IMG/VR virus record: IMGVR_UViG_3300015607_004925
Span: 120,916-184,915 of that record
Length of the DNA: 64,000 bases
DNA from: a virus
Taxonomy: Duplodnaviria > Caudoviricetes
Strand: one strand, 5' to 3'
Shown piece after piece: positions 10,052 through 60,053 of the stretch. Under the pieces are notes generated by a model. That model saw nothing but the letters and a program-made list of their open reading frames with translations, was not told the DNA's origin and made no database searches. Position 1 is the first letter of the stretch. Each line of letters opens with the position of its first letter. The translations under genes and the position numbers were made by a program.

Positions 10052-10341
10052 TGGCGGACCAGGTCACGCGTTCGGAGGACTCGCTGAAAAAGGTCAAGGA
10101 GGCGCTCGACGGCGTCAGGCCGACGTCGCGTCTGCTCGAGGCCGCGGAGACCGTCGAGCCGGCGATGAAGGCGCTCACGGTGATGTTCACCGAGCGAGGC
10201 CTCGACCCCGACCAGGTCGTCTTCGCGCTCGCCCTGCTCACCATCAACTTCCGGGAGCAGATGCCCGAACGCCACGGCGGCAAGGAGATGTTCGACCGTG
10301 TCGCGCACGAGGCGCACAAGTACTACCAAGCCAACAAGTAA
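10051..10341 (+). CDS. Hypothetical protein
   Basis: TGATG coupling, codon bias. Confidence 0.65.
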   Translation: MADQVTRSEDSLKKVKEALDGVRPTSRLLEAAETVEPAMKALTVMFTERGLDPDQVVFALALLTINFREQMPERHGGKEMFDRVAHEAHKYYQANK

Positions 10342-10663
10342 GCGGGCCAAGGCGTCGCGAGACGTTCGGCTCACCACCTGGCAGAGCGTCTGCGGTGTAC
10401 GCCACTACGCGCTCGCCAAGTACGAAGGTGACGCTCCCTTCCTCTGCGACGTGTTCCTGCCGTGCCGGGGCTACATCAGCGACGCCTTCGACACCACCGA
10501 CGACGCGAAGGTCGTCACGTGCGTGCCGTGCCTGTCGTCGCGCTTCAAGCACGTGTGCGCGGTGACGGACCTGTCAATGATCGTCCACCTCGACGAGCCG
10601 GACCTGATCGACCACTTCCTCGATCACGAGGCGCTCGCCGTAGGGTACGACCCGTGGCAGTGA
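10298..10663 (+). CDS. HC3-like finger family member 1 (start uncertain)
   Basis: CGVRH...LPC...VVTCVPC. Confidence 0.6.
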   Translation: MSRTRRTSTTKPTSKRAKASRDVRLTTWQSVCGVRHYALAKYEGDAPFLCDVFLPCRGYISDAFDTTDDAKVVTCVPCLSSRFKHVCAVTDLSMIVHLDEPDLIDHFLDHEALAVGYDPWQ

Positions 10664-10686
10664 CGGCGACATGTGTCACTACCTGT

Positions 10687-11472
10687 TTAGGGCGTTGGTG
10701 ACGCCGCCATGAGCGCGTCGAGGCCCTCGCACACGCGTTCGCGTAGCACCTCGAGCGTGCTGTCGTTGCGAACGATCCGTTGGAACTTCGTGTCGGGGAT
10801 CGTGTCCATCTCGTTCTCGGACGCGTGCGACGGGATGCCTTGTGCCTGGCGATCGGTGTCCGGGCGGCGGAGGCGCCACACCGAGCCACCGGCGGCCTGC
10901 ACGCCGTCCATCTCGGAGCGGAAGCGGCAGTCCGTGATCACGACGAGCTTGGCGCCGCAGCGCACGCTCTCGGGCGCGTGCGGGTAGGTCGTCGTCAGGT
11001 TGTACGTGGTGCCGTCGTCGAGCGCGATCGGCGTAACGTAGGCGTGTCCTGCGAGCACGGCCTCTGCGGTCTGCATCGCGAAGCGGACCCAGACGTTCGG
11101 GTCGATGCGGCGGCAGCCCTCGGTGCCCATGTGTTGCAGGATCATGCGCACGGTCCACCGACTCTCGAAGGCGCGGACGTCCGACCCCACCGCCGAACAC
11201 TTCTGGCAGACGACGCGCTTCACCTCGTCTTGGAAGCACTCGATCGAGCTGCACGCCGGGCACATCCAGCAGACGAAGTCCGTGACACGGTCCTTGCCCT
11301 TCTCCGTGAACACGTCGTTGTACGTGAGGCCGTAGAGGTCCATGCAGAGGAGCTTCAGCTTGTCGGCGAAGGCGACGGTCGCCACGCCGGCGTCGCCGAG
11401 CTGCGCGCGCGCCATCTGGCCAACGGTGTCCTTGCCGCTCTTCGAGCGGCCCATCAGTGCGAGTACGTTCAC
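10687..11472 (-). CDS. Deoxynucleoside monophosphate kinase (T4 gp1-like) with inserted zinc ribbon
   Basis: P-loop GRSKSGKDT, FADKLK, RMILQHMGTE, VITDCRFRSE, HASE; insert CPAC...CQKC. Confidence 0.85.
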   Translation of the reverse strand: MNVLALMGRSKSGKDTVGQMARAQLGDAGVATVAFADKLKLLCMDLYGLTYNDVFTEKGKDRVTDFVCWMCPACSSIECFQDEVKRVVCQKCSAVGSDVRAFESRWTVRMILQHMGTEGCRRIDPNVWVRFAMQTAEAVLAGHAYVTPIALDDGTTYNLTTTYPHAPESVRCGAKLVVITDCRFRSEMDGVQAAGGSVWRLRRPDTDRQAQGIPSHASENEMDTIPDTKFQRIVRNDSTLEVLRERVCEGLDALMAASPTP

Positions 11473-11876
11473 GAGGGCTCCTTGGGTTGGTAACGAATTC
11501 GCTCGGGCCAGAACGGTGCCATCGGCGCCTTCAGCAGAAAGTCGTCATCGTAGAGATCCACGTACTGACGCACCAGCGTCAGGTGGTCGAGCGCGACACC
11601 CCACCCGGGGTCATCCGTAGACCGCCAGAAGGCGTCGTACGCGGCGCGCCCGCACGCCGAACCGTGGAACACGACCACGCGGATCTGAGGGTTCGCGAGA
11701 AGATCTCGCACGACATCCTTGAGGAACATCGAGGAATCGCCGACCACCGCGACGGCGCGACTCGCCCAACGACGACGAAGCTCGGGTACCTCGACCTGGA
11801 GCGGGCACGCGACCACCAACGCCTGGGCACTAGGGTCCAGCAGCAAGTACTCGAGCCGGCTCACGGGCTGCCACAT
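11469..11876 (-). CDS. Stand-alone MtrA-like domain protein
   Basis: AVVG...KDVVRDLLANPQIRVVVFHG resembles the LLANPNIR motif of MtrA-like domains. Confidence 0.5.
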   Translation of the reverse strand: MWQPVSRLEYLLLDPSAQALVVACPLQVEVPELRRRWASRAVAVVGDSSMFLKDVVRDLLANPQIRVVVFHGSACGRAAYDAFWRSTDDPGWGVALDHLTLVRQYVDLYDDDFLLKAPMAPFWPERIRYQPKEPS

Positions 11877-19124: not shown

Positions 19125-19538
19125 GTGATCAAGGGCGACCTCGCGCCGCCGTACGAGGTCAAGCACATGTTCGGCGTCGTCGACGGGCTCGTCCACGCGT
19201 TCGGGTACGTGCTGGGCGGCAACGCATGGGACTCGTGCTGTCGCATCCAGCTCGTAGGCATCACGTGCAGTGACGTCCAGGCACCGACCTGCGTGCACTG
19301 CGCGCTGTGCCAAGGTTGCCATGCGTGTCGCAAGGGGCACATCCGCCACGAGACGATGCGCCTCGGGAAGTGGGAGACCAAGGACGGGCGCAGGCTGTAC
19401 CCGTTCGAGATGGACCCCATCCACCTCATGAACGCGATCGCGAAGCTCCGCCGGGACAAGCACCACTTCAAGGACAACTACTTGGACTGGATCGACATCC
19501 TGGAGACGGAAGCCAGGTTGCGGCGACTGACCCCATGA
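19125..19538 (+). CDS. HC3-like finger family member 2 (with C-terminal domain)
   Basis: DGLVH...SCC...APTCVHC. Confidence 0.65.
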   Translation: MIKGDLAPPYEVKHMFGVVDGLVHAFGYVLGGNAWDSCCRIQLVGITCSDVQAPTCVHCALCQGCHACRKGHIRHETMRLGKWETKDGRRLYPFEMDPIHLMNAIAKLRRDKHHFKDNYLDWIDILETEARLRRLTP

Positions 19539-20997: not shown

Positions 20998-21486
20998 GTG
21001 AGCGCCGAAGACGTCCACATCGTCCGCGCCGACGTGCCGCAGCCACCCCACGCCGCGCGCGAAGTGCTCTGCGGCTTCGAGACGCCCAAGGACGGCAACC
21101 GCGTGTCAGGCCCGCCGAACATGGCGACCTGTTGGCGGTGCATCCTCCTGGCGTGCGGTCGGCCGATCCCGCCGGAGCCCGCGGTCACTGAGCACGAGCG
21201 CCTCGAGGCGACGAAGAAGACCGACGACGCGACGCAGCTCGTCGGCGAGTTCGTCGACTGGCTCGCCCAGGAGAAGCAGCTCGTGCTGGGCCGGTGGAAC
21301 GACGACAACGAGCTGACCCCCGCGCGCGAGAACATCTCGCGCCTGCTCGCCGAGTACTTCGGCATCGACCAGAACGCCCTCGAGGCCGAGAAGACCGCCC
21401 TGCTCGGGTACCTGCGCGAAACCCACCAGGCCCGCGAGTGGGCCATGACCGAGGGCAAGAAGACCCTCAGCCACGCCGGAGAGTGA
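20998..21486 (+). CDS. HC3-like finger family member 3 (with C-terminal domain)
   Basis: EDVH...VLCG...ATCWRC. Confidence 0.65.
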   Translation: MSAEDVHIVRADVPQPPHAAREVLCGFETPKDGNRVSGPPNMATCWRCILLACGRPIPPEPAVTEHERLEATKKTDDATQLVGEFVDWLAQEKQLVLGRWNDDNELTPARENISRLLAEYFGIDQNALEAEKTALLGYLRETHQAREWAMTEGKKTLSHAGE

Positions 21487-22395: not shown

Positions 22396-22686
22396 GTGCC
22401 GCCTCTGTGGGAGGGGTTACGGACGTTGTGCATTGCTCCCCAGGACTTCGGCGGGTTCACATACCCCCATGTCCACGTCGTTCGCTATGACGGCGTCGTC
22501 CACATCACCACCTACACCGAAGGTCCGGGGGTCGTCACTGTCGACACCCGCAGTACACCACTGCGGGAGTTCCGCATACACACCCGGTGCGATCGCGTCC
22601 TGAAGATGTGCCTGGGCGGACACAACCGCTTCACGACAGCGTCGCCGACCTGTGTACGGTGCGTCGGCAAACCGGAGGTCCGATGA
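22396..22686 (+). CDS. HC3-like finger family member 4
   Basis: YDGVVH...TRC...SPTCVRC. Confidence 0.65.
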   Translation: MPPLWEGLRTLCIAPQDFGGFTYPHVHVVRYDGVVHITTYTEGPGVVTVDTRSTPLREFRIHTRCDRVLKMCLGGHNRFTTASPTCVRCVGKPEVR

Positions 22687-28685: not shown

Positions 28686-28958
28686 GTGGGGTCTCACGCT
28701 GCCGGAACCACCATCGACGCCTACGTCGCCCGTTGCGGGCTCTGCTTCTTCGGCGCGTTCGAGGCGCCGGAAGCCGGCGAAGACGCGCTAGTCCACGCCT
28801 GCATGGTCGTCGACGCCAACTACGGAAACAAGCGGGCAGTGCGAGCGCGGTGCGGTCGCCGTGCCGTGACCGCGCGCGTCGTCACCGTGTCCGGCACGAA
28901 CATGCCGACGTGTTGCGCGTGTATCGCACGCACCTACGAAAGGAACCTGCCCCTGTGA
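28686..28958 (+). CDS. HC3-like finger family member 5 (start uncertain)
   Basis: DALVH...ARCG...MPTCCAC. Confidence 0.6.
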   Translation: MGSHAAGTTIDAYVARCGLCFFGAFEAPEAGEDALVHACMVVDANYGNKRAVRARCGRRAVTARVVTVSGTNMPTCCACIARTYERNLPL

Positions 28959-29212
28959 ACCTCAACGAGCTGGTCCTTCAGCTGCGCAAGCCACCGGTGG
29001 AAGGTGCGTACGAGATCGTGCGCGGGCCTGACGCCATGAACCACCTGGCGGTCATCACACGCGCCCGCGATGTGCGCGAACGCGGCATCAACGTCCGCGA
29101 GTTCGCCTTCCAGTTGTGGTGTGGTCTCGTGCATACGGACCCAACCACCCTCGAGGTCGTGCGCACCGAATCTCTCACCTGTATCCGCTGCGTCCAATGG
29201 AGGACGTCATGA
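28955..29212 (+). CDS. HC3-like finger family member 6
   Basis: DAMNH...LWCG...SLTCIRC. Confidence 0.65.
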   Translation: MNLNELVLQLRKPPVEGAYEIVRGPDAMNHLAVITRARDVRERGINVREFAFQLWCGLVHTDPTTLEVVRTESLTCIRCVQWRTS

Positions 29213-31306: not shown

Positions 31307-31483
31307 CCCGGAAGACCGGCGCATCGATCGCCTCGATCAGCCAGCGCTCCGCGTCTTCGCGTCGACCCGCCGCCAGGGCGAGCGAAGCCATCCACGTGAG
31401 CGCCTTCGGGCACCGCGTGGCGGAGAACATGGAGTGCTTGCACGGGGGCGTCACGGGGTCCTCGGGCGACGTTTTGGAGGCGA

Positions 31484-39952: not shown

Positions 39953-40155
39953 CAGACCTCGAGCATCTGGTGCCGATCGGCTACGTGACGTGGCAGACGC
40001 CCGACGGCCTCATCCACGTGGCGTGGCAGGCGTCGACCAACCGCTACGCCGACTACCACACGAGCTGCGCGCCGATACGCCCCCGCACGCCGGCGTACGG
40101 CCGGAGGGTCGACCACGCGCCCACACGTGTGCCGTGCGTCGCAGGGCGTCGCTGA
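39949..40155 (+). CDS. HC3-like finger family member 30 (Cys->Arg degenerate)
   Basis: PDGLIH...TSC...APTRVPC (CGT where TGT expected). Confidence 0.62.
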   Translation: MTDLEHLVPIGYVTWQTPDGLIHVAWQASTNRYADYHTSCAPIRPRTPAYGRRVDHAPTRVPCVAGRR

Positions 40156-40382
40156 TGTACACGCACAGCTTCCGCGACCGCGCCGGCGTCGTCCACATCG
40201 TGGCGATGCCGACGAGCCGCACGCCCTACGCCGCGTGCGGCACCATCTACTTCGATCTCGACAAATCCGACCGCGCCTTTCATTTCGTGCCCGGCGTGGC
40301 CACGTGCCTGCGCTGCTGGGCGCGCGAGTTGCTCGAATGGACGTGGGAGGCCAACACCTCCACACCTCAGAAAGGTTTATGA
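40155..40382 (+). CDS. HC3-like finger family member 31
   Basis: RDRAGVVH...AACG...VATCLRC. Confidence 0.72.
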   Translation: MYTHSFRDRAGVVHIVAMPTSRTPYAACGTIYFDLDKSDRAFHFVPGVATCLRCWARELLEWTWEANTSTPQKGL

Positions 40383-40389
40383 GATAAAC
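40375..40389. promoter_or_regulatory. Palindromic operator/promoter element (perfect) abutting ATG
   Basis: GTTTAT GAG ATAAAC-ATGATG. Confidence 0.72.
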
Positions 40390-40860
40390 ATGATGACCGA
40401 GCAAGAGACCAAGGACTTCGGCGCCCAGATCGTCGCCCGGCTCAAGACCGAGGAGGCGCTCGAGGCCATCGCCGCGGACGTCGATGCACAGATGGCGACG
40501 GTGGACGGCGCCCACTTCCAGGCATGGACGTGCACGCTGGTCGAGGGTGGTGGCGAAAGGACCCCGACGTACCGCCTGCGCCTGCAGCGGCTCAACCAGC
40601 GCCTGATCGAGCGGCCCGCGTTCTTCGCGGCGATGGAGCGCTACCACGTGACCAGGGTGGCGCAGCAGGTGATCTTGCTCGTGGCCGCCGGCAAGTTCGA
40701 GCAAGCAAACCAGTGCCAGCACCCGTGGCGCCGCACGCTCGCCGCCGGAACACCCGCACACACCCAGTACCAGGACACGCTCGCGCGCGGCGAGGCGGAC
40801 GCCACGGATCCCCGGGTCAAGGCGCAGTTGCGCGCGCTGCTCGACGACTGGTCGCGATGA
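40390..40860 (+). CDS. Hypothetical protein
   Basis: 156 aa, codon bias. Confidence 0.65.
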   Translation: MMTEQETKDFGAQIVARLKTEEALEAIAADVDAQMATVDGAHFQAWTCTLVEGGGERTPTYRLRLQRLNQRLIERPAFFAAMERYHVTRVAQQVILLVAAGKFEQANQCQHPWRRTLAAGTPAHTQYQDTLARGEADATDPRVKAQLRALLDDWSR

Positions 40861-41240
40861 GCGCGCTGCACGTCGAGGTCGGACAGAAGGTCGTGGTGCA
40901 TGGCGATCCCCGAACCCACGTCGTCAGCTGGACCAGTCATCGAGCGTGGGACTCCGTGTGCGAACACATCATCGAGGACTACCAGCCCGACTACTACACG
41001 CAACTGCTCGAGGCCGACCGGGACGCGATGGAACGTCGCCGCTACGCGCCGCACCCGTACCCCGAGGACACCGATCTCGGCGACAAGGACACCCACACGG
41101 AGCATCCGGCACTGCAGTTGCAGGTGGCACCTGACGACGCCCCCATCACCTGCCTGGTGTGCCTGATCAGGTGGTGGCACCTCGATGACGCCGCGACGCA
41201 CGACGAGGACGCGGACGACAACCCGTGGCCGTATCCATGA
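40857..41240 (+). CDS. HC3-like finger family member 32 (long loop)
   Basis: DPRTH...SVC-x~50-PITCLVC. Confidence 0.62.
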   Translation: MSALHVEVGQKVVVHGDPRTHVVSWTSHRAWDSVCEHIIEDYQPDYYTQLLEADRDAMERRRYAPHPYPEDTDLGDKDTHTEHPALQLQVAPDDAPITCLVCLIRWWHLDDAATHDEDADDNPWPYP

Positions 41241-41467
41241 CGCGGTTCGTGCGCATGACCGACGCGGTCAACGACGCGATGGATGAAGGCGGCCTCGTCC
41301 ACGTGGGGACGTATTGGGTCGCATCCGCGACCAACACGCAGCCAAATAAGTCCAGCAGGACCTACGAGGGCGTGCTGTGTCGCCGCGCGGAGATGGCGCT
41401 CACGTACACGTCGGCGGCGCCGACGTGTGTGGTGTGCCTCGTCAGATGGCTGCACGCCCGCGCGTGA
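41237..41467 (+). CDS. HC3-like finger family member 33
   Basis: DEGGLVH...VLC...APTCVVC. Confidence 0.7.
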   Translation: MTRFVRMTDAVNDAMDEGGLVHVGTYWVASATNTQPNKSSRTYEGVLCRRAEMALTYTSAAPTCVVCLVRWLHARA

Positions 41468-41509
41468 CCTGTCGCCACGGACACGTAACACCCACACAAG
41501 GAGATCGAC

Positions 41510-41866
41510 ATGGCGCTCAACAACAACAAGACGGACCTGCCCGTCTGCAAACACTGTGGCTGGCAGATGGCGGGCTTCCACGAAGAACGCACCCACGAAG
41601 CGACGTGCACGCGCGCGGCCGCCGGCAAGCAGGCGGTCGCGCTCGCGGCGCGCTTCCCCGAGATCGAGGCGACCCAGCACGGGTACGGCACCGGCGTGCT
41701 CGTGTTCGAGATCGACAAGGACTACAACATCAAGCTGAGCTGTCACGACGACGGCTTCTACATCGAGGACGTGTGGCTGCTGGGCGAGCTGTCGCCGGAT
41801 GCCGCCGCCGACTTCGTGCAGACGCTCGCGGCGTGGCGGGCGCGGCACCCGCCGAAGGCGCGGTGA
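41510..41866 (+). CDS. Hypothetical protein with N-terminal CxxC finger
   Basis: AAGGAG RBS; CKHC...H...C. Confidence 0.62.
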   Translation: MALNNNKTDLPVCKHCGWQMAGFHEERTHEATCTRAAAGKQAVALAARFPEIEATQHGYGTGVLVFEIDKDYNIKLSCHDDGFYIEDVWLLGELSPDAAADFVQTLAAWRARHPPKAR

Positions 41867-41867
41867 C

Positions 41868-42065
41868 GTGATCACCCGCCGTACGGCCCTCGACAGTCAA
41901 GGCGTGCGGCACCTGGTGTTCATCCTGACCGGCTACCCGACGGGCTCGATGACGTGCGCGATGCAAAGCGGCGTGCCAGGTGACCAGGTCGACAAGACGT
42001 TCTCGCCGATCACGTGCGTCGAGTGCCTCGTGTTCGAGATGGGGCTACGTAGCCGTGGCCAGTGA
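41868..42065 (+). CDS. HC3-like finger family member 34
   Basis: DSQGVRH...MTC...PITCVEC. Confidence 0.7.
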   Translation: MITRRTALDSQGVRHLVFILTGYPTGSMTCAMQSGVPGDQVDKTFSPITCVECLVFEMGLRSRGQ

Positions 42066-42306
42066 CGACGAAGACGACGACGCCGACGCCGTCGTGATGT
42101 GCCCCGACACCCACGGCGTCATCCACCTGGTGCTCCTCAACGGCTCGTGGCGTCGCAGCATCTGCTCGGCGTGGGGACGGAGCATGGCCCACAACACCCT
42201 GCTGTGGAGCGCGCCGGGGCCCTTCGCCTTCCCGACGTGCGTGTTCTGCGTGTTCTACGTGTTCTACACAGAGCACGAGCGCCGGCAGAGCGCAGCGACA
42301 TCATGA
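42055..42306 (+). CDS. HC3-like finger family member 35
   Basis: DTHGVIH...SIC...FPTCVFC. Confidence 0.7.
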   Translation: MASDDEDDDADAVVMCPDTHGVIHLVLLNGSWRRSICSAWGRSMAHNTLLWSAPGPFAFPTCVFCVFYVFYTEHERRQSAATS

Positions 42307-42485
42307 GATGGGGCGACGCCTGCAAGACACCCGAGGGCGCGCTCACCCACCTGGTCGCGTTCTCGACGGCGTGGACGTGGTGCGGATGCAAGACGGACCC
42401 GCTGGACGTGGTGCCGACGCCGCCGACGTGCCTCATGTGCATCGTGATCGCGGCAGATTGGAGCAGGCGATGGCAGCGGCGATGA
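42303..42485 (+). CDS. HC3-like finger family member 36
   Basis: EGALTH...TWCG...PPTCLMC. Confidence 0.7.
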   Translation: MRWGDACKTPEGALTHLVAFSTAWTWCGCKTDPLDVVPTPPTCLMCIVIAADWSRRWQRR

Positions 42486-42721
42486 GCCCTCGGCCCTACG
42501 GACGCCGCGCGACGCCGTCGCGGCAGCGGATCCGCAACCACGATGGCGTCGTGCACATCGTGTGCGAGGACGGCGCGATCGTCGCGTGCGGCCTCCGCGT
42601 GTCGGCGACGCCCTGGAGGGAGACGCGGGACATGATCAACGGACCCTACCTATCCGCCGACGCGATCGCGACGTGCGTGGTGTGTCTGGCGTACGCGCGG
42701 CCGCCGAAGAGGCGACCATGA
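42482..42721 (+). CDS. HC3-like finger family member 37
   Basis: HDGVVH...VACG...IATCVVC. Confidence 0.72.
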   Translation: MSPRPYGRRATPSRQRIRNHDGVVHIVCEDGAIVACGLRVSATPWRETRDMINGPYLSADAIATCVVCLAYARPPKRRP

Positions 42722-42924
42722 CGCCTGGTAGCATCGTCGAGGTCGCTGGGCTCTTCCATCAGGTATGGGCGACGCACGGCACCTACGACAAAACCTATAC
42801 GTACTGCGGGATGCGCGTACGGCACGCGAACGAGGCCCAGACCTCGCTGATGACGTGCGTGGCCTGCCTCGCGACCATGATGGCGTACGACCGCGCGCGG
42901 GCGCGGCGTTGGCAGTTCCTGTGA
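42718..42924 (+). CDS. HC3-like finger family member 38
   Basis: AGLFH...TYCG...LMTCVAC. Confidence 0.7.
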   Translation: MTPGSIVEVAGLFHQVWATHGTYDKTYTYCGMRVRHANEAQTSLMTCVACLATMMAYDRARARRWQFL

Positions 42925-43106
42925 GCGCGGAAAGGCTCCCGCGATGGACCGACCCGCGCACCGGACTCGTCCACTTGGTGGACGAGGACCTGAACTGGTA
43001 CGCGGTGTATTGCACGTGGCGAACCATCGAACACCCGCACGTGTTCACGACGGACGCCATGTTGACGTGCGTGCGGTGCATCGCGATCGCGCCGCGCGGC
43101 GCGTGA
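42921..43106 (+). CDS. HC3-like finger family member 39
   Basis: WTDPRTGLVH...VYC...MLTCVRC. Confidence 0.72.
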   Translation: MSAERLPRWTDPRTGLVHLVDEDLNWYAVYCTWRTIEHPHVFTTDAMLTCVRCIAIAPRGA

Positions 43107-43959: not shown

Positions 43960-44484
43960 GGGATAGACACGTTTTGCGCGAAGAAATCCTTCCGAAGCGC
44001 GTCGTGGGCAGCGAACGGAAGGTAAGTGAACGGATTGAACTGGATTCTGTAGCTGGTTTGATGGGTTTTCAAGAGTGTAGCTCCAGCGTTTCGCCCACAT
44101 ATCAGTCTAAGACAGCGTTTTAGATAAAGAATTCCTGGGGAATGTCTGATCATACACGAAATGCGAAGACCCTCTCAAAAAAACCCCATGTATTTATACG
44201 CGGTGTTTGTAGATAGACCCGCGAGATCCCCCTACGTATGCACGTAGCTACGCACCTAGAGCGACATGTAGGCAAAAAAAAGATGCGTCGCCACGTGAGA
44301 GGGTCTTGGTAGATACCAGCTGATCAGTCAGTTTGTTTCGTCCTCCCCCCGCCACCCCTCTCCTTCTTCTCCATGGAGTTCTCGTAGTGTAGTAGTAGTA
44401 GAGACGCGGCGCGGGGCGCTCGGGGAGGCATGGTTTGCCGGCGATTGCGTGTTTCTGTACTCGTTGATTGGGGTCAAACCAGAC
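43960..44484. other. AT-rich divergent intergenic region (candidate origin/terminus/promoter hub)
   Basis: Visibly lower GC than the rest; A8 tracts, GTATTTATAC, palindrome CGTAGCTACG, pyrimidine tract, GTAGTAGTAG. Confidence 0.5.
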
Positions 44485-45081
44485 ATGAATCGTCTTTGTT
44501 TTCACTCGAATCCGATCCCGAACCTGGTTCCCGACCTCGCATTTCTCGACCGCTACATCGAGCGAACGGAGCGCGGCGACCACTGGCTGATTCGCGACGG
44601 GAAGAAGCCAGACCGGCGGCACAACCACCGCGGCCAGGCCTTCATCCGGTTGCGTGTTCGGCCCACCGTGGCGACCTCGTACCGCGACAGCGGCGAGTAC
44701 TGCCTGGCGCGCCTCCTGATCGAAGCCACGCAGCCGCCAGCACCGCCAGCACCGCCACGCAGCTCCTACGTGAACGCGTGCGGTCTTACGCAGTGCGTAA
44801 ACCCTGTTCACTGGCGCTTGCTCGTGCCGCCGGCGCGGTGGCGCTTCGAGCTGGACGTCCTTGCGACCTGGCAGCTGGTTCGCACGCGTACAGGCAAGCC
44901 GGCGACCGACCCCGAGGTCGTTCGTGCGCGTGACCGCGCGGGTGTCGTCCACGTGTTCTCCACGGTGCCTGCGCATCAGCGTCGCGCTGGCGTGATGCCT
45001 ACCGCCGTCTGCGGGGCCACGTTCTATCCACCTGACCTCGTGGTCGTCGCCGCGCCGGTCACCTGTGCGAAAGGTTGTTGA
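44485..45081 (+). CDS. Member 40: degenerate HNH (His-Me finger) domain + HC3-like finger
   Basis: DHWL...YVNACGLTQCVNPVHW; RDRAGVVH...AVCG...PVTCAKGC. Confidence 0.65.
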   Translation: MNRLCFHSNPIPNLVPDLAFLDRYIERTERGDHWLIRDGKKPDRRHNHRGQAFIRLRVRPTVATSYRDSGEYCLARLLIEATQPPAPPAPPRSSYVNACGLTQCVNPVHWRLLVPPARWRFELDVLATWQLVRTRTGKPATDPEVVRARDRAGVVHVFSTVPAHQRRAGVMPTAVCGATFYPPDLVVVAAPVTCAKGC

Positions 45082-45624
45082 GTGGGTCGCCTGATTCCTC
45101 CCCACATCGGTTTGTGGCGCCAGGTCGTGCTGCCGACGCAGGCCCAGCTCGAGCCGTTCGTCGAACGTGAGCACGACCACTGGTTCTGGGGTGGTGACTT
45201 CCACGATTTCGATGGCACGCGGCTCGCCGTCTTGCCTTGGGGGCAGACCAAGATCGTCGTGGTTCGCGCCCTCTGGGTTTATGCCAACAACATCGACACC
45301 CACGAGACCGTGTACCTGCGGCGCGCGTGCGCGTACAGTGCGTGCGTGTGTCCCGCCCACGTCGTACGGGTCGGCGAAGGTTTCAACAACAAGACGTACG
45401 TCATGACCAAGCCGCTCCCGTTGCGCGACGGCACGTTGCTCGTGCGTCACGAGGCTGGTGGGCGCATCCACCTGAAGCCCGAGGACGTCACGCACACGCT
45501 GTGTGGGCGACGTGTGAGACCTCGCCGGCCTTGTGTCAGCGCGACGCCGGTACAAGGCCTGATCGACTGCCAGGACTGCATCCGTACCGTGCTCGCGCAG
45601 GGTTACGTGTTGGAGACGCGGTGA
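45082..45624 (+). CDS. Member 41: degenerate HNH domain + HC3-like finger
   Basis: DHWFWGG...LRRACAYSACVCPAHV; GGRIH...TLCG...IDCQDC. Confidence 0.62.
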   Translation: MGRLIPPHIGLWRQVVLPTQAQLEPFVEREHDHWFWGGDFHDFDGTRLAVLPWGQTKIVVVRALWVYANNIDTHETVYLRRACAYSACVCPAHVVRVGEGFNNKTYVMTKPLPLRDGTLLVRHEAGGRIHLKPEDVTHTLCGRRVRPRRPCVSATPVQGLIDCQDCIRTVLAQGYVLETR

Positions 45625-45839
45625 TGCACTACTTGGTCAGCGCCCGCAACGTCCTCGGCAAGGACGGCCTCGTCCATGGCGCGTTTCGTGACGGGGAGAA
45701 CGGCGCGCTCCGTGGACATGTGTACGTGCCTTGCGTCCGGCGTTTCTTTGCCGTGCCGTATGGCGACATCTCGTACACGTGGCGGGATGTCACGTGTGTG
45801 CAGTGTCTTGCGTACGGTACGAGCCAGGCCGCGCCATGA
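45624..45839 (+). CDS. HC3-like finger family member 42
   Basis: KDGLVH...VPC...DVTCVQC. Confidence 0.7.
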   Translation: MHYLVSARNVLGKDGLVHGAFRDGENGALRGHVYVPCVRRFFAVPYGDISYTWRDVTCVQCLAYGTSQAAP

Positions 45840-45990
45840 AGACGTGGATCGGTTGCCTCGGCCTTCGTCAAGCGCGCGTCGTCACGTGTGTGTGTGGTGT
45901 CTCGTCGGAATTGAACGACGTACGTGATAAACATCGAACGGAGATCGTCATGAACACAGCGCACGAAACCAAGAACGAGGTGACCGCCTG

Positions 45991-46188
45991 ATGTCGACGC
46001 TGCTCGCCACGACCATCACGGTCAAGTTCTCGACGAAGCACGGCGAAAGCCGCGAGGCGACGATCGAACAGGCGCCGTACGAGAGCTGTGACGCGTTCTT
46101 CGTGCGCGTCCGGGCGATGCACGACCAGCTCAAGGTCGCGCGTCCCGGGACCATCTACGACCCGAGCAAGGAGGGCGTCCGTGGTTGA
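45991..46188 (+). CDS. Hypothetical protein
   Basis: GAGGT RBS; TGATG coupling. Confidence 0.5.
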   Translation: MSTLLATTITVKFSTKHGESREATIEQAPYESCDAFFVRVRAMHDQLKVARPGTIYDPSKEGVRG

Positions 46189-46579
46189 AGTCGTCGCGGG
46201 GCTGTACATGCAGGACGGCAAGGCGCTGCTCGGGCTGCGCAAGCCCGACGGCAGGCGTGGCGGCCTCTGGGAGTGTCCTGGCGGCAAGGTCGACCCGGGG
46301 GAGTCGCACCTGGCGGCGTTGCGTCGCGAGTGGCACGAGGAACTGGGCGTGGCCGCCTCGTGGATCAACCAGCAGCCTATCGCGACCGCGTTCTTCGACC
46401 TCGAGATCTGCTTCACCGTCACGCTCTACGCCGTGCGTGCCATCCGCGGTACGCCGCAGTGTCTCGACCACGCCGAGCTGCGCTGGGTCGACCTCAAGCA
46501 CGCCATCGAGTACCTGCCGTGCTCCCCGGCGATGTACCTCCACTGGCCGATGGTGCGCTGGTGGCTGGAGCGGGCGTGA
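46181..46579 (+). CDS. NUDIX (MutT-like) hydrolase
   Basis: Nudix box WECPGGKVDPGESHLAALRREWHEELG; AAGGAGG RBS. Confidence 0.88.
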   Translation: MVEVVAGLYMQDGKALLGLRKPDGRRGGLWECPGGKVDPGESHLAALRREWHEELGVAASWINQQPIATAFFDLEICFTVTLYAVRAIRGTPQCLDHAELRWVDLKHAIEYLPCSPAMYLHWPMVRWWLERA

Positions 46580-46636
46580 ACGCCGAGCCTGACGGCCCGG
46601 CCCCGTCCGGGCATCCGCGACACGTGAAAGGTTCCC

Positions 46637-46930
46637 ATGGGCTACGTCTGGGCGATGACTCGTAACGTCGTCGTCGAGGAGGGTTCGAGCGTCGGATCGC
46701 ACCTCCTCGTCCACTACGCGATGCGTGACGTGCAGCGCGGTGCCGACCGCGGCTACGTGTCGCTGCTGTGTCACGTGTCGCTCATCACGACCAAGAAAGG
46801 GAAGCACGGCGCGCGGCGGTGCGCGCGGTTTGTGCAGCGCGCGGTGACGTGTGTACGTTGTCTCGCGTGCGCGTCCGAGATGTTGTCGCCCTGGCATACG
46901 TCGCGCGCGTCGCGTGAGGTCGCGCCGTGA
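46637..46930 (+). CDS. HC3-like finger family member 43
   Basis: LLVH...LLC...AVTCVRC. Confidence 0.68.
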   Translation: MGYVWAMTRNVVVEEGSSVGSHLLVHYAMRDVQRGADRGYVSLLCHVSLITTKKGKHGARRCARFVQRAVTCVRCLACASEMLSPWHTSRASREVAP

Positions 46931-52339: not shown

Positions 52340-52570
52340 GTGACCGCGCTGCAACGGCAGAACGAAAAAACCAGCATCGAGGCGTTCGTCGACCAGATGA
52401 CACGCGCCGCGCGCGACCGGATGACCGACGCGGGCTCGACGGGTGTCATCATGGCGGCCGCGCGCGCGGCCGCCGACATGGCACCACGCAAGGCGGATGG
52501 CACCATCGACGAGGAGGTCGCCCGCGTCATGATGCGCCGTGCCGCGCGCGGGCTGGCGCGGCTGCGATGA
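52340..52570 (+). CDS. Hypothetical protein
   Basis: TAAGGAGG RBS. Confidence 0.65.
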   Translation: MTALQRQNEKTSIEAFVDQMTRAARDRMTDAGSTGVIMAAARAAADMAPRKADGTIDEEVARVMMRRAARGLARLR

Positions 52571-52782
52571 GCCACAGGTACACCGTCGAGGCGTCGGGCC
52601 TACGCCACGGCGTGCGATCAGAGATCCAAGCTCGCGCGGTGCAGCTCGGCTCGGGCATTCGATGCCACACCGAGTGCGGTGGCTACGTCGATCAGGTCGT
52701 TCCCGACGACACGTTCCTCGTCATCACCTGTGTGCGGTGTCTCGGCGTCGCGCAGATCCTCCTCCTGCGCGGCGGCATCTGA
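52567..52782 (+). CDS. HC3-like finger family member 44
   Basis: SGLRH...TECG...VITCVRC. Confidence 0.72.
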   Translation: MSHRYTVEASGLRHGVRSEIQARAVQLGSGIRCHTECGGYVDQVVPDDTFLVITCVRCLGVAQILLLRGGI

Positions 52783-53111
52783 TGGGCTACTCGATACGCC
52801 CGCGGTACACCTACAGCGTCAATGGCGTGCGGCACGGCATCGACCGTCAGATCTTCACGCGACGCATGCCCATCCACGCGGATGATCCGGACAGCACGCG
52901 CTGTTATCCGGCGTGCGGTGGTTTCATCGACGGGAAGCCTGACGCCGGCTTTCTTCCGATCACCTGCGTGCAGTGTCTTGGCGCCGTCTTGCGCCGTCGG
53001 CCTTGTTCCTGGTGCAAGCCACCAGGTTCCGGTGTTGACACGTGCGAGGCCAGTGGTCGTTGTGTGCACTGCGCTGGAACGGGTGTCGCTGACGACGAGG
53101 GTGACACCTGA
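52782..53111 (+). CDS. Member 45: HC3-like finger + DnaJ-like CxxCxGxG finger
   Basis: NGVRH...PACG...PITCVQC; CSWC...GSG...CVHCAGTG. Confidence 0.68.
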   Translation: MGYSIRPRYTYSVNGVRHGIDRQIFTRRMPIHADDPDSTRCYPACGGFIDGKPDAGFLPITCVQCLGAVLRRRPCSWCKPPGSGVDTCEASGRCVHCAGTGVADDEGDT

Positions 53112-53160
53112 CGGGTTACGTCGGGCCGCGTTTCGCGCCGTGATTCGCTACCATTTTGGT

Positions 53161-53481
53161 ATGTCCAAACCCTCGCCCGATGACCCCGTCGACTTCGACA
53201 GCGTCGCGATCTCTCGTACCACGACCGAACCGCTGCGCATGTCCTACGGCGACCGCGTCGCGGTGGAGAACCGCGTCCACGCCTTCGAGATGAAGGTCAA
53301 CCAACACATCGACGATCACAACAAGGCGGCGGACGTCTTCTACAAGACGCGGATGATGCCCCTCGAAGAGACGGTGAACCGCAAGGTCCGGCTCATGTGG
53401 TTCATCGCAGGGCTCGCGGTGGCCGCGATCCTCGTAGCCGTCGCCACCTTCGTGACCGTCATCTACGTGTACAGCCAGTAG
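53161..53481 (+). CDS. Membrane-anchored hypothetical protein
   Basis: C-terminal TM helix. Confidence 0.6.
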   Translation: MSKPSPDDPVDFDSVAISRTTTEPLRMSYGDRVAVENRVHAFEMKVNQHIDDHNKAADVFYKTRMMPLEETVNRKVRLMWFIAGLAVAAILVAVATFVTVIYVYSQ

Positions 53482-53488
53482 GGGGAAC

Positions 53489-53875
53489 ATGGGCCATCCG
53501 ATGGAGGACTACTACCTCGCCGAGGGCATGGCCCGCGAGCGCAAGCACACGCGCTACGAGCGCGTGCTCGAGGCGCTCAAGGACGTGCCGCTCGCCGAGT
53601 TCACCGTGGGCCAGCTCTGGGACATCCACCGCCTCGTCGCGCGCGAGTGGGGCGCGACCGAGGTCCTCGAGCGGCTGGAGCTGCTCGTCCAGGAACGCGC
53701 GCGGACGTTTCGACACGGCATGTTCGTCCGCTACAAGAACCCGAAGAAAGGCCAGCGCGGGCGCGGCATCATCACGTCGTACCCGCGCCGCGGCTCACGC
53801 ATCGTCTACGTGCAGGGCCCGCGTGGCTGGGCGGGGTGGGTCCGCGTCGAGGAGCTGGAGGTCGTGCCGCCGTGA
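53489..53875 (+). CDS. Hypothetical protein (possible SH3-like C-terminus)
   Basis: RBS AGGGGG, codon bias. Confidence 0.6.
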   Translation: MGHPMEDYYLAEGMARERKHTRYERVLEALKDVPLAEFTVGQLWDIHRLVAREWGATEVLERLELLVQERARTFRHGMFVRYKNPKKGQRGRGIITSYPRRGSRIVYVQGPRGWAGWVRVEELEVVPP

Positions 53876-54150
53876 GCCGCGTGAAGGTTTGCCACATCGC
53901 CTTCGACGGGCTCGTGCATCGCGGGCTACACGCCAGCAACGGCACCATGAGCGTCGCGTGCGGTAGCGTACCGCGGTACACCGCCTGCGACGTCGACGAG
54001 TTCCTCACGTGCGTGCCATGTATCGTGCGTGACCTGCGCGCCCTGCGCTATCGGCACGTGTTGCGGACACAGGCCCAGCTGCGTGACGCGCACCTGATTG
54101 GAGGCCTCGATGCGTCGGTGGCGGCGGTACATGACGACGCTCACGAGTGA
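53872..54150 (+). CDS. HC3-like finger family member 46
   Basis: FDGLVH...VACG...FLTCVPC. Confidence 0.72.
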   Translation: MSRVKVCHIAFDGLVHRGLHASNGTMSVACGSVPRYTACDVDEFLTCVPCIVRDLRALRYRHVLRTQAQLRDAHLIGGLDASVAAVHDDAHE

Positions 54151-54415
54151 CAAGCGCGTCGGGAATCTCTGCGACGCGCTCATCACCACACCCGACGGCC
54201 TTCGTCATTACGCCATCCTCGTCGAGGTGCTGCCCGCTCTCGCGCGCTTCGATGCGTGGCGCGACCAGACCCCGTTCTACGTGGCGCTGTGCGCGCTGTG
54301 CGACGCATATGATGCGGCGCGGAGTTACAACGACTTCACGTACCCCAAGGAGAAGCACACGGCCGCGGCGCTCACGCACGGCTTTCCGACGTGCGCACGG
54401 TGCAGCGGTGCGTAG
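54131..54415 (+). CDS. HC3-like finger family member 47
   Basis: PDGLRH...ALC...FPTCARC. Confidence 0.68.
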   Translation: MTTLTSDKRVGNLCDALITTPDGLRHYAILVEVLPALARFDAWRDQTPFYVALCALCDAYDAARSYNDFTYPKEKHTAAALTHGFPTCARCSGA

Positions 54416-54593
54416 TCGCGCGAGCCTTGATGGGATGGTCGGGGAAGACGGCCAAGGTGTGCGCCATCGTCTCAGGCCAAGCCACATGCGGGGCCGCCTA
54501 CACGCGATGCCCGTTTGTGGCTACGTGAACTGGTTTGCCTTGGATCTACGTGAGGGCTTGCCGACCTGTGTGAGGTGTGTGTGCCTGCCTTGA
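54408..54593 (+). CDS. HC3-like finger family member 48
   Basis: DGQGVRH...PVCG...LPTCVRC. Confidence 0.7.
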   Translation: MRSRASLDGMVGEDGQGVRHRLRPSHMRGRLHAMPVCGYVNWFALDLREGLPTCVRCVCLP

Positions 54594-54850
54594 TCGGCAC
54601 GGTGACGACGGCGCAGGGCGTCGTGCACGCGGTCGCCGAGACGCACATAACCTACAGCTATGACGGCGCGTCTTGGCGTGTTTACACGGCATGTCAGCGC
54701 ACCTATAGCGAGACGTTTCTCGACGTCCCCGATCGTATGGTTACGTGCGTGTATTGTGTGATCGGCAAGCCGGGGCCGCGCGACGCGTCGTTGACCAACC
54801 CCTGCGGCGAGATCGAGATCGACCTGGAGGCTGTCATTGGATGCCTATAA
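54590..54850 (+). CDS. HC3-like finger family member 49
   Basis: QGVVH...TAC...MVTCVYC. Confidence 0.7.
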   Translation: MIGTVTTAQGVVHAVAETHITYSYDGASWRVYTACQRTYSETFLDVPDRMVTCVYCVIGKPGPRDASLTNPCGEIEIDLEAVIGCL

Positions 54851-54854
54851 GCAC

Positions 54855-55091
54855 ATGTCCCGGGTCGCGCACTTGGAGCGCTACGCCAACGACCGTCGCT
54901 TCGCGCAGATCACGAAGGCGTTCACCGCGCGCGGTGTCTGCACGTCCATCTACGCGGCTGACACGTTTGGCGTGATGCATCGCATCGACGCATCGACGGC
55001 GCACGCGGTGTGCGGCGCACCTCTCCTGCGTCAAGCCAAGCTCGTGTTTCAGGCGTACGCGACGTGCGTGCGCTGTGCGTGCGCGGCGTGA
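54855..55091 (+). CDS. HC3-like finger family member 50
   Basis: DTFGVMH...AVCG...YATCVRC. Confidence 0.7.
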   Translation: MSRVAHLERYANDRRFAQITKAFTARGVCTSIYAADTFGVMHRIDASTAHAVCGAPLLRQAKLVFQAYATCVRCACAA

Positions 55092-55303
55092 GCAAGTACG
55101 GATGCCTTCGCATCTACGACGCGAAGCCGCCGGGCGACAGCGTCGTGCATGTTGCCACGATCGTCTCGAACTTCGAGTTCGCGCACACGCCCTGCGGGGT
55201 GTCACGTAGCGCCGGCGGCATTCACGAAGCACCTCGCGGGTCACTGGTGACGTGCATCCGTTGTCTGGCGGTGATGCTCGCGAAGAAAGACGGGTGGCTC
55301 TGA
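55088..55303 (+). CDS. HC3-like finger family member 51
   Basis: DSVVH...TPCG...LVTCIRC. Confidence 0.72.
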   Translation: MSKYGCLRIYDAKPPGDSVVHVATIVSNFEFAHTPCGVSRSAGGIHEAPRGSLVTCIRCLAVMLAKKDGWL

Positions 55304-55536
55304 TGCCTGGTCTCGACAACAACTACACCGAGCGCTACTGGGAAGGCGAGCCGACGACCGGCGAGGGCATCACGCACATCGTCGGCGTCGACCGCATCGA
55401 CAACGAGAAGATCGCCGCCTGCGGCCGCCTGGTCGCGCAAGAAGGCGACTTCTGGGTACCCCGGACCACGACCGCCACGTGCCTGCGCTGCTGGTACCGT
55501 GCGTTGTTGTATCCGACGTTGATCGTCATCAGCTGA
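55303..55536 (+). CDS. HC3-like finger family member 52
   Basis: EGITH...AACG...TATCLRC. Confidence 0.72.
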   Translation: MPGLDNNYTERYWEGEPTTGEGITHIVGVDRIDNEKIAACGRLVAQEGDFWVPRTTTATCLRCWYRALLYPTLIVIS

Positions 55537-55559
55537 TATCACCCCGTAGGGGTGATGTC
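55535..55559. terminator. Hairpin after member 52
   Basis: GATATCACCCC-GTA-GGGGTGATGTC; no U-tract. Confidence 0.5.
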
Positions 55560-55649
55560 GTCGTGTACGCCATGGTTCGTCGGTCCGTCCATCGTGGGAC
55601 GTGCGCCGCGCCGTCGTAACCTTCACGCACGCTGTGGTAAAAGCCTAGA

Positions 55650-55898
55650 GTGGCGACGGTTTATGCGCTCGACACGCGGCGAAACCTGAAGGTCCGCTAT
55701 GGCGGTCTGGTTCACTACGCCATGACCGAACAGCTCGTCGTGTCTTCGGCGGGAAGGTCGACGTCACAGGTGCTGCCATACGGCGCCCTTTGTGGGGCGT
55801 ATTTTGGCACGACCGACGAGACGCCCGCCTATCTCGAGAACGCCAAGACGGTCATGGTGACATGTGTCGCGTGCTTGGGTGATCGGAGACGTCGATGA
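55650..55898 (+). CDS. HC3-like finger family member 53
   Basis: GGLVH...ALCG...MVTCVAC. Confidence 0.7.
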   Translation: MATVYALDTRRNLKVRYGGLVHYAMTEQLVVSSAGRSTSQVLPYGALCGAYFGTTDETPAYLENAKTVMVTCVACLGDRRRR

Positions 55899-56269
55899 AC
55901 AGGTGGTCGCGGGTGGTGCGTTGGTTTCGCAATTTCATCGAGGCGAAGGAGTGGGACCAGTATGCGATCGAGAGCCTCGCGGCCATCTACACCGACGAGA
56001 ACGACATGACTTATCGTCTCGCGCGTCGCACGCGCGACGCGGACACGGGCATCGTGCACATCAAGGACGTCGTGTCCGGCACGCTTTCGTACTGCGGCCA
56101 GGGCTTCGCCGTGTCCACGATCGACACGACCGTGAAGCATACCGCGGCGCCCACGTGCGTGTTCTGCATCGCCGGGATGCGCGCAGGGCTGCCGCAGTGG
56201 CGCTTCCTCGCTCCCGACACGGTCTACCGACGCACTATCGAAGAAGGCCTCCGTGACCGAGGCGACTGA
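55895..56269 (+). CDS. HC3-like finger family member 54
   Basis: DADTGIVH...SYCG...APTCVFC. Confidence 0.72.
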   Translation: MNRWSRVVRWFRNFIEAKEWDQYAIESLAAIYTDENDMTYRLARRTRDADTGIVHIKDVVSGTLSYCGQGFAVSTIDTTVKHTAAPTCVFCIAGMRAGLPQWRFLAPDTVYRRTIEEGLRDRGD

Positions 56270-56442
56270 CCCGGACCTCGCGTTCCCCAGTCGACGAGCG
56301 CTTCCCGACGTGCGTGCGCTGCATGACGGCCGCGTTCGAGCAGGCCGCCGCGGCCGCCGTGCGTCGCGCCGAGGTGACGGCCTACGGTAGCTCGATCGCT
56401 GACAGCTTCCTGCGCACGCTGCGCGCGGTCCGCCGCAAGTAA
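56253..56442 (+). pseudogene. Truncated/frameshifted HC3-family relic
   Basis: GTG start (MTEATDPDLAF) is out of frame with FPTCVRCMTAAF...RRK*; His and first Cys absent. Confidence 0.45.
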
Positions 56443-56454
56443 CTGGAGGCGCCG

Positions 56455-56868
56455 ATGCCGACCTACGAGGACACCCAGCACGCTGGGATCGTCCACATCT
56501 TTCGTTACATGAACAAGGAGCGCCGCGCCGGGCTCACCTGCTGCGGCATGTACGTCGAGTTCCGGCCGACGACGCTGCTCGAGATGGCCCCGACGTGCGT
56601 GCTGTGCGTGGGCTACATCCCGCCGCGGTGCGAGTGCCCGCTGTACCGCAAGGGCAACCTGATCGCGGGCCACCGCGCGTACTGCCCCGTCGTCGAGGGC
56701 TTCGACGCCGTCGAGGGCTTCGACGCCGTCGAGGAGCGCATCGAGGACATCGTGTGCTGGTGCGTCCAGCGCGGCACCCACAACAAGGAGTGCGACGCCG
56801 ACGGGTTCTGCCAGGAGTGCGGCTACCAGTTCGACGACTCCAACGTGCGCTTGCTGAGGGACGTGTGA
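56455..56868 (+). CDS. HC3-like finger family member 55 (extra Cys-rich modules)
   Basis: AGIVH...TCCG...APTCVLC; 18-bp duplication VEGFDA x2. Confidence 0.7.
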   Translation: MPTYEDTQHAGIVHIFRYMNKERRAGLTCCGMYVEFRPTTLLEMAPTCVLCVGYIPPRCECPLYRKGNLIAGHRAYCPVVEGFDAVEGFDAVEERIEDIVCWCVQRGTHNKECDADGFCQECGYQFDDSNVRLLRDV

Positions 56869-58853: not shown

Positions 58854-59140
58854 AGACCTTCCGTGAAGAGCTGACCATGCTGTGTCGGCAGATGCGTTAC
58901 TGGCCACCCGAGCTGCGGGGACCCGCCATTCTCGCCTTCTGTGCGAAGTACAACCTCCTCGTCCGGTGGTACTGGGTGCGAGACCCCTTCGCGTCGTTCG
59001 GCTTGTTCACCGTCGGCGTCGTGCTCCGGCTTACCGTGCCGGGTGTGCCCGAGTTGACGATGACGACGGCGGTGTCGCATCGCCTGCCGCGCCGCGGCTT
59101 GCGCGCGGCCCTCGCCCGCGAGGTCACAAGCCTGCCATGA
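58850..59140 (+). CDS. Hypothetical protein
   Basis: GAGGT RBS, ATGA overlaps. Confidence 0.55.
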   Translation: MKTFREELTMLCRQMRYWPPELRGPAILAFCAKYNLLVRWYWVRDPFASFGLFTVGVVLRLTVPGVPELTMTTAVSHRLPRRGLRAALAREVTSLP

Positions 59141-59550
59141 CGCTGGATCAGCTCTACGCGAAGCTCAGCGCGCTGGTCGACACGTACGCCATCTATCACG
59201 GCGGCTCCACGGTACCGTGGCGGTCGAAGAAGCTCGACACCATCGAGGCCATCCTGCACGAGCTGGTGCACGGTGTCTGTCTTGGCGACCCCAACCTCTG
59301 CTGCGACATCGAGGGCAACCTGCCCCTCGACGTTGAGGGCCGTGACGCCCAGGAGCTGAAGACCCTGCGCGTCGAGCGTCGCGTGTTCGCGCTACTCAAG
59401 CATCCGCTGTCGCGGCGCAAGGCGTTGCAGATCTTCGACGCCGCGATGTTCGATGGCAACACCCCCACGCGCGCCCGCTTCGAGGCGCCGCTCACGTTGC
59501 GCGAGGAGCGGCTCGCCCGCAAGACCGTGCGGCTCATCGAGGCCGCGTAG
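59137..59550 (+). CDS. HExxH-motif protein
   Basis: ILHELVHG...QE. Confidence 0.55.
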   Translation: MTLDQLYAKLSALVDTYAIYHGGSTVPWRSKKLDTIEAILHELVHGVCLGDPNLCCDIEGNLPLDVEGRDAQELKTLRVERRVFALLKHPLSRRKALQIFDAAMFDGNTPTRARFEAPLTLREERLARKTVRLIEAA

Positions 59551-59784
59551 ATGCCCTGGCGTTGCGCCCTATACGGGCGCGTTCGCAACGCCGGCCTCGT
59601 ACACATCGTTTATGTTGAAGGAAAGGAGGATCGCGTGTGGTGGACCGCGGAGTGCGGCCTGCGCTGGGCTCACCGCGAGAACCGTGATAGGACGCTCGCG
59701 CCCAAGACCACCAAGGCGCGCGCGACGTGCCTGCGCTGCCTCTACCTGCATCTCAAGCACGGGTGGACGCCGTGGCCGGGATGA
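59551..59784 (+). CDS. HC3-like finger family member 56
   Basis: NAGLVH...AECG...RATCLRC. Confidence 0.72.
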   Translation: MPWRCALYGRVRNAGLVHIVYVEGKEDRVWWTAECGLRWAHRENRDRTLAPKTTKARATCLRCLYLHLKHGWTPWPG

Positions 59785-60053
59785 AGCTGCTGGGCCCTGG
59801 CCCGCCGCCGCCCGAGCCCGCCGACATTCGCGACATCACGTGGATGTCCGTTGAAGGCTTGGTCCACGTGGTGTTCGCCATGCACGGCTCGATGCTGACG
59901 ACCCGTTGCATGATCCCGGACTTGCGCAAGCGCAACCAGTTCGGGCATGTTTATCCCGCACGTACCTCCGAGTATCTCGATCACGAGCTGGGGTTCGTGT
60001 GGCTGCAACCAATCACCTGTCTCTGGTGTGCCATAGACCGATGGAGGCCCTGA
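59781..60053 (+). CDS. HC3-like finger family member 57
   Basis: EGLVH...TRC...PITCLWC. Confidence 0.7.
   Translation: MKLLGPGPPPPEPADIRDITWMSVEGLVHVVFAMHGSMLTTRCMIPDLRKRNQFGHVYPARTSEYLDHELGFVWLQPITCLWCAIDRWRP

Follow-up and report, generated by a model that had tools for sequence, protein, structure and literature searches.

A large family of one-domain His-Cys3 mini-protein genes in an uncultured phage, a putative repertoire of small metal-stabilised binders

The DNA analysed here (hereafter the window) is a stretch of 64,000 nucleotides, bases 120,916 to 184,915, forming the last 64 kb of the 184,915-bp IMG/VR record IMGVR_UViG_3300015607_004925 from an uncultured phage with a GC content of 66-67%. 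It contains a large family of small plus-strand genes, each encoding a module of about 55 residues built around one His, one Cys and a C-terminal CxxC knuckle. Comparison of the two ends of the record revealed a common stretch of only 22 bases, and the junction of the ends is crossed without break by a near-identical metagenome contig. Therefore, the record is a circular or permuted assembly, and the window runs on into genome position 1.

Frame comparison gave 55 occurrences of the knuckle motif TC[VLIAM]xC in the plus frames of the window (all three) versus two in the three minus frames, and 75 versus 3 in the whole genome, where it is concentrated at 130-185 kb and 0-10 kb. A profile hidden Markov model (HMM) built from the copies matched 65-66 open reading frames (ORFs) at E<1e-3, all on the plus strand and none on the minus strand, with 52 located within the window and 14 beyond the assembly junction. 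No match was obtained with this model in five triplet-shuffled genomes or in the reversed genome, and a model built from only the 11 copies outside the window recovered 20 of those inside it, again all on the plus strand. The G + C content of the family frame is 0.7-0.97 at the third codon position (GC3) and about 0.5 at the second (GC2), as expected for true coding sequence of high GC. In such DNA the motifs might be chance occurrences within long spurious ORFs, and many of the stop-to-stop ORFs here do exceed the real genes in length. However, this explanation was refuted by the strand distribution of the HMM matches (66 versus 0), by the empty shuffled and reversed DNA, by the GC3 periodicity, which sits in the family frame, and by the presence of orthologues in many independent metagenomes; it retains hardly any probability, and we are all but certain that the family is a real protein family. 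An earlier reading of the letters alone (the sequence-only reading) had first reported these genes and had named the comparison with other frames and shuffled sequence as a check beforehand; the near-empty minus frames, the shuffles and the GC3 pattern confirm its observation as a whole.

A regular expression added divergent copies, among them DCxxC variants at 33236, 45082 and 20998 and a further copy at 54110, so that the window holds approximately 56-58 copies and the whole genome 72-75; the 57 plus-strand members counted by the sequence-only reading were thus about right. The family accounts for about one fifth of the genes of this 185-kb phage, from a total of about 312 genes predicted by our own crude gene caller. 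Phages rarely keep more than a handful of paralogues, and among the gene families seen in phages the present one ranks with the largest.

In both the alignment of 58 copies from this genome (A1) and that of 150 sequences (A2), the only invariant residues are the His, the Cys and the T-C-x-x-C, or (T/D)CxxC with variants. Relative to the first sequence of the own-copy alignment, the copies are 14-32% identical. A looser W-x-D-x-x-G-V-V-H arm runs ahead of the His, and a Gly often comes after the second ligand. Between His and Cys lie 6-50 residues, and between Cys and the knuckle 15-50; the genes are mostly 60-95 aa in length. Thirty-five of 57 family genes overlap or abut the gene upstream, 16 of them by a 4-nt stop/start overlap. 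Motifs resembling the Shine-Dalgarno sequence were commoner at the predicted starts than at random positions, a count that is biased because the gene caller prefers such starts. A few copies have N- or C-terminal extensions, all without a Pfam match. The copies at 30620-31003, 34264-34545 and 53872-54150 extend 40-70 codons beyond the knuckle into the next copy, in another frame; the tail of 34264-34545 is conserved in its orthologues P0005 and P0006, so at least some of the long gene overlaps seem real. A search for longer forms yielded only a 216-aa orthologue. Three long profile matches (P0012, P0013 and P0015) considered as fused forms were rejected as repeat-protein false positives, such as Sushi repeats. 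In P0071 and P0090, from metagenome relatives, a short segment after the His-Cys3 domain weakly matches the motif region of family A DNA polymerase (18 bits).

The copies form three arrays, for which 14, 19 and 12 genes had been given from sequence alone and in which we found 13-14, 18-19 and 12-13. All family copies located below are on the plus strand. Array A (30620..34678) has 13 copies found by HMM, with domain starts at 30620, 30820, 31046, 31579, 31760, 32082, 32285, 32467, 33024, 33466, 34062, 34237 and 34466; the DCxxC variant at 33236-33517 was added by the regular expression. N-terminal extensions of 100-140 aa, for which the Pfam scan gave no match, are carried by two of the copies (32703-33239 and 33663-34280). 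A tRNA-Met gene (CAT) is located on the minus strand at 31992-32067, in a gap inside this array. Array B (37493..43106), headed by the gene of an XRE-type helix-turn-helix (HTH) protein (36576-37517), has 18 HMM copies with domain starts at 37493, 37880, 38065, 38289, 38935, 39117, 39323, 39549, 39728, 39904, 40116, 41225, 41856, 42076, 42237, 42470, 42667 and 42903. It also holds a decayed copy that has lost the first Cys of the knuckle (39949-40155) and a doubtful copy, an ORF at 40857-41240, and is interspersed with non-family genes at 38486, 40390 and 41510. Array C (52546..56868) has 12 HMM copies, the domains starting at 52546, 52773, 53866, 54402, 54581, 54918, 55079, 55303, 55662, 55994, 56260 and 56446, with an additional copy found by the regular expression at 54110-54415. 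A remnant comprising only the C-terminal half of a copy lies at 56314-56442, and the copy at 56455-56868 has a Cys-rich C-terminal extension.

A loose group of four (44449..46930) was found by HMM and regular expression. It consists of a C-terminal copy cut by a stop inside CxxC (44449-45081), the regular-expression DCxxC variant with a weak match to the family zf-HC3 (45082-45624) and two ordinary copies (45621-45839 and 46637-46930). Single copies found by HMM are located at 10298..10663 (121 aa, domain 10346-10576, GC3 0.92), at 19125..19538 (137 aa, with a Cys-rich C-terminal extension) and at 22426..22686 (86 aa). The 162-aa protein encoded at 20998..21486 has an N-terminus resembling a divergent copy and was found by the regular expression only, with no HMM match. 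Two pairs were found by HMM: adjoining copies in 28686..29212, at 28686-28958 (with the knuckle variant TCCAC) and 28955-29212 (borderline, E 0.004), and overlapping copies in 59551..60053, at 59551-59784 and 59763-60053.

Other recognisable non-family genes in or near the arrays encode a NUDIX hydrolase (46181-46579), a protein matching class II aldolase and DFP (57522-58853) and, on the minus strand, ThyX (13714-14754). A 581-aa protein encoded at 49103-50848 ends in a lysine-rich tandem-repeat (A/P)KK(P/R) tail (50713-50869), which resembles a basic nucleic-acid-binding tail.

Structure prediction with AlphaFold2 gave a predicted local distance difference test score (pLDDT) of 69 with the 58 own sequences, and a pLDDT of 88.4 with a predicted template modelling score (pTM) of 0.73 with the 150 sequences. 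The latter model has three strands followed by a helix beginning at CxxC, and the order of the elements is identical in both models. The confident fold supports the proposal of the sequence-only reading that a constant scaffold with four invariant probable metal ligands carries very different loops. The His, the Cys and the CxxC probably constitute a metal site of inferred geometry; the four residues would hold one metal ion, most likely Zn(II), and pin the three-stranded sheet to the C-terminal helix. Sites with three Cys and one His bind iron-sulfur clusters in some proteins, and in that case the family might alter the metal or redox balance of the host, for example by buffering, or act as WhiB-type cluster-bearing factors. 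WhiB-like proteins are frequent in actinobacterial phages, and a weak WhiB-like match is present elsewhere in this genome. However, no family member matches the Whib model (PF02467), which describes a four-Cys Fe-S motif; structural zinc sites typically combine a CxxC where a helix begins with single ligands contributed by turns, buffering would not need seventy divergent copies, and the variable loops are conserved within orthologues. An iron-sulfur or redox role is therefore very unlikely.

Searches with the fold and the profile, which served also to compare the module with solved classical zinc ribbons and treble clefs, found no significant match among solved structures. Foldseek against the PDB gave nothing at E<=0.001, VIA-align against 48,161 chains gave a best Z of only 3.7 (to PWWP/Tudor-like barrels), the profile had no sequence match among PDB chains at E<=10, and BFVD, which holds viral structures, gave nothing significant. 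A shape search of the ESM Atlas matched an Actinomycetota cluster with a template modelling (TM) score of 0.83 by query and a root-mean-square deviation of 1.2 Å over 60 residues. In this cluster, which was also the nearest named cluster in a feature search, 23% of members carry zf-HC3 (PF16827).

The nearest named family is zf-HC3, an uncharacterised family of short His-Cys3 zinc fingers found mostly in Actinomycetota. The present family resembles it in size and in the ligand order H...C...CxxC, the zf-HC3 pattern being taken from its name; in fold, the likeness observed is to the Atlas cluster (TM 0.83), of which just the above minority carries zf-HC3. However, scans of the members against Pfam, PHROGs and NCBIfam found no family above its cut-off. 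With the Pfam HMM of zf-HC3 the best copy of this genome scored 20.5 bits against a gathering cut-off of 25; weak matches were obtained for 3 of 150 members (best E 3e-4), and there was none above the cut-off in five relatives holding about 190 copies. The HMM of DUF3039 (PF11238), a small actinobacterial protein with a similar His/Cys order, matched nothing in the genome even at E<=10, and the Pfam scan assigned none of the 150 members to it. Of the likeness to zf-HC3 and DUF3039 proposed from sequence alone, fold comparison favours a place beside zf-HC3, whereas formal membership of zf-HC3 and the link to DUF3039 were not supported. No function is known for zf-HC3, and we know of no publication describing its expansion to dozens of copies per genome; in the literature searched it received only a passing mention, in one paper.

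When 1.84 billion representatives were searched with the profile, 342 clusters matched at E<=1e-3, nearly all of them metagenomic 'hypothetical proteins' of 50-90 aa, with some two-domain tandem forms. A search with the helicase of the phage found eight related viral contigs. Copies were counted with the A1 profile in the closer relatives and with the A2 profile in those holding 3-14. The complete genome G004 (187.9 kb) has 65-67 copies, G002 has 35-36, G005 has 37 and G001 has 24, while distant or fragmentary relatives have 3-14, so that relatives of 90-188 kb span 3-67 copies. The multi-copy relatives indicate that the expansion is a trait of the clade. None of 185,579 representative bacterial genomes contained the one conserved subfamily that was searched for. 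An actinobacterium is the probable host, as suggested by the high GC, by the Actinomycetota label on the nearest Atlas clusters and by the weak WhiB-like match. This match (17.4 bits, below the cut-off) lies at 14954-15034, outside the family, and would, if real, be a hint of an actinobacterial host.

Many diverged paralogues in a plastic, co-directional accessory arm, with copy number varying among relatives, recall the multigene families at the variable genome ends of eukaryotic large DNA viruses, although the proteins, hosts and mechanisms are unrelated and the likeness is an analogy only. A closer case exists among phages. The statement of the sequence-only reading that no phage system with a comparable expansion had been described was not quite right, since Bacillus phage G has a lineage-specific expansion of about 35 zinc-ribbon proteins, for which Iyer et al. 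(2021, PMC7824862) suggested a role as specific transcription factors or as structural binders of DNA. Both are very large phages with dozens of paralogous small proteins, zinc-binding or putatively so, whose role is obscure. The Firmicute host and the zinc-ribbon ligand pattern are, however, peculiar to phage G, and the two families are not homologous; the A2 profile had no match at E<=0.1 in the 497-kb phage G genome (NC_023719). The present family is about twice as large, in a genome one third the size. What is new here is an uncharacterised family without a name, larger than the phage G case; as a kind, the lineage-specific expansion of such small zinc-binding proteins is already on record from a very large phage.

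The phage G precedent, with the role proposed for it by Iyer et al. (PMC7824862), keeps alive, at a modest probability, the alternative that the copies are sequence-specific or structural nucleic-acid-binding zinc fingers, that is, small transcription factors or DNA/RNA-binding proteins working with the phage's own transcription machinery. The isoelectric points (pI) of the copies, from 4 to 10, have a median of 8.2, and the domains are enriched in Arg. The palindrome GTTTAT-N3-ATAAAC, which stands ahead of about 15 genes and is specific to the phage, also implies that DNA-binding regulators must exist. It gave 20 matches in the genome (about 18 distinct sites with at most two mismatches) versus 0-4 in shuffles; sites in the window are at 5531-5545, 11882-11896, 19970-19984, 34725-34739 and 40375-40389, with about 12 more in the genome. 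Most sites lie 1-40 nt ahead of the start codons of larger genes outside the family (the helicase gene and genes of 476, 137, 243 and 156 aa), and the palindrome is likely to be a phage-specific promoter or operator that would divide the arrays into transcription units. Scans of the arrays for sigma-70-type promoters and terminators did no better than on shuffles, and CTATAAT was absent from the window. On the other side, about 40% of the copies are acidic or neutral, a single recurrent operator-like motif stands against about 70 paralogues, no DNA-binding zinc-finger fold reached a Z of 4, and the genome has separate HTH regulators.

The diversity of the copies was examined within the genome and against its relatives. 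There was no RVT_1 (reverse transcriptase) match in the genome and no template/variable repeat pair, the copies having no common DNA repeat beyond the stretch coding for the knuckle. These results rule out recent duplication and a diversity-generating retroelement, which had been considered as a candidate and was rejected on the same two counts. Only one clearly recent pair of copies (43% identity) was found within the genome. Relative to G004, whose helicase is 64% identical, the window is syntenic at 4-28 kb and almost without recognisable counterpart at 28-60 kb. Best matches of copies between the two genomes were no better than paralogue matches (25-35 bits), and orthology is mostly lost; the single copy at 19125..19538 is among the few with a clear G004 orthologue (48% identity). 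In a tree of 193 copies from four genomes the median support was poor (75 of 100) and the genome labels were almost randomly interleaved (85 changes versus 87-107 in shuffles). This weakly supported tree shows no large recent burst in any one lineage, and does not give the date of the expansion.

In a contig of 92.8% nucleotide identity, the copies are collinear and in kept order. The pooled dN/dS there, over 908 codons of the family, is 0.47 versus 0.38 for non-family neighbours, at a dS of 0.16. Across 21 orthologue pairs, 0 of 76 ligands changed, versus 19-23% of scaffold positions and 32-36% of loop positions. In this comparison of loops and ligands, of the kind that the sequence-only reading had proposed as a check, the loops changed most, about 1.6 times faster than the scaffold. 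The term 'hypervariable' used in that reading fits the loops of paralogues but not those of orthologues, which keep about two thirds of their loop residues at this dN/dS. Orthologue identity varies from 60 to 100% within 6 kb in a mosaic-like manner. Against L038, an otherwise identical contig (99-100%), all but one of 164 differences, among them a 64-base indel region, fall in window positions 57500-60400; this patch, the sole differing stretch, covers the two overlapping copies at 59551..60053 and the gene at 60053-60307, and has the look of a recent exchange by recombination. With its differences gathered in this one recombined patch, L038 was of no use for dN/dS. The three decayed copies described above, with the lost knuckle Cys, the stop inside CxxC and the C-terminal half only, point to birth and death of genes. 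Taken together, comparative evidence suggests that this is an old family, each copy under its own constraint, with cassette exchange and gene birth and death.

Decay of copies, fast turnover of the whole block and the mosaic divergence of orthologues (60 to 100% in one 6-kb stretch) would also be seen if small cassettes simply multiplied and drifted in a plastic genome arm as neutral or selfish elements without individual functions. This is improbable, as the ligands are invariant in all copies, the family dN/dS is 0.47 at a dS of 0.16, the loops are two-thirds conserved between orthologues, and there is no DNA-level repeat, transposase or reverse transcriptase to multiply the cassettes.

To our judgement, there is an even chance that the best overall explanation is correct, namely that the one-domain mini-proteins of this large and old multigene family serve as a repertoire of small, metal-stabilised binders with specialised roles; that the individual copies act as specialised binders falls slightly short of an even prospect. 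The mechanism would run as follows. About 66-75 co-directional genes in tightly spaced arrays of the accessory genome arm each encode the same module, of which the two long inter-ligand loops and the tails vary among the copies and would form the working surfaces. Each copy would probably have its own target, because each is under purifying selection in close relatives. During infection the phage would make the binder set to bind, block or redirect varied macromolecules of host or phage, in takeover or counter-defence, and the set would be renewed by divergence, by cassette exchange between related phages and by occasional decay of copies. The pI spread from 4 to 10 is a mild argument here, as it fits varied partners better than one common nucleic-acid ligand. 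Binders or decoys against host defence, as first suggested from the sequence, are plausible, and a specifically anti-defence role of the copies would seem rather unlikely. A bolder version, tentative at best, is that the arrays may amount to a library of metal-stabilised mini-binders encoded in the genome, a single-domain paralogue repertoire larger than any other known from a phage, in which each copy would neutralise or redirect a different host factor (a defence system or takeover target) and cassette exchange or loss would set the host range.

Several results weigh against a repertoire of specialised binders. The dN/dS of 0.47 shows constraint and no sign of an arms race. A recognisable counterpart in a distant relative was found for 9 of 57 family genes versus 9 of 50 non-family small genes of the same block, and, given this equal loss, fast turnover characterises the block as a whole rather than the family. 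The searches for longer or fused forms gave no case of the module joined to a domain of known function, and the neighbours (XRE-type HTH, NUDIX, GerE and aldolase) give no functional clue for the family. No cultured relative was found by megablast or by tblastn against cultured phages, and no helicase of a cultured phage exceeded 32% identity to the one encoded here. The genomes of 185,579 bacterial species, scanned with ThyX and with the conserved subfamily alignment, gave nothing as a bacterial handle or host.

One module of about 55 residues thus accounts for roughly one gene in five of this 185-kb phage, and it is found again throughout a clade of uncultured relatives. Should the copies be specialised binders, they would represent a scaffold library of natural origin, from which many new inhibitors of bacterial proteins might be drawn; its loops would reveal the tolerance of a minimal metal-pinned fold, and a first function would be given to the zf-HC3 fold. 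If they are instead transcription factors, regulation in this phage would be unusually complex. Either way, the family forms a sizeable and clearly bounded block of viral dark matter, open to ordinary expression and pull-down experiments.

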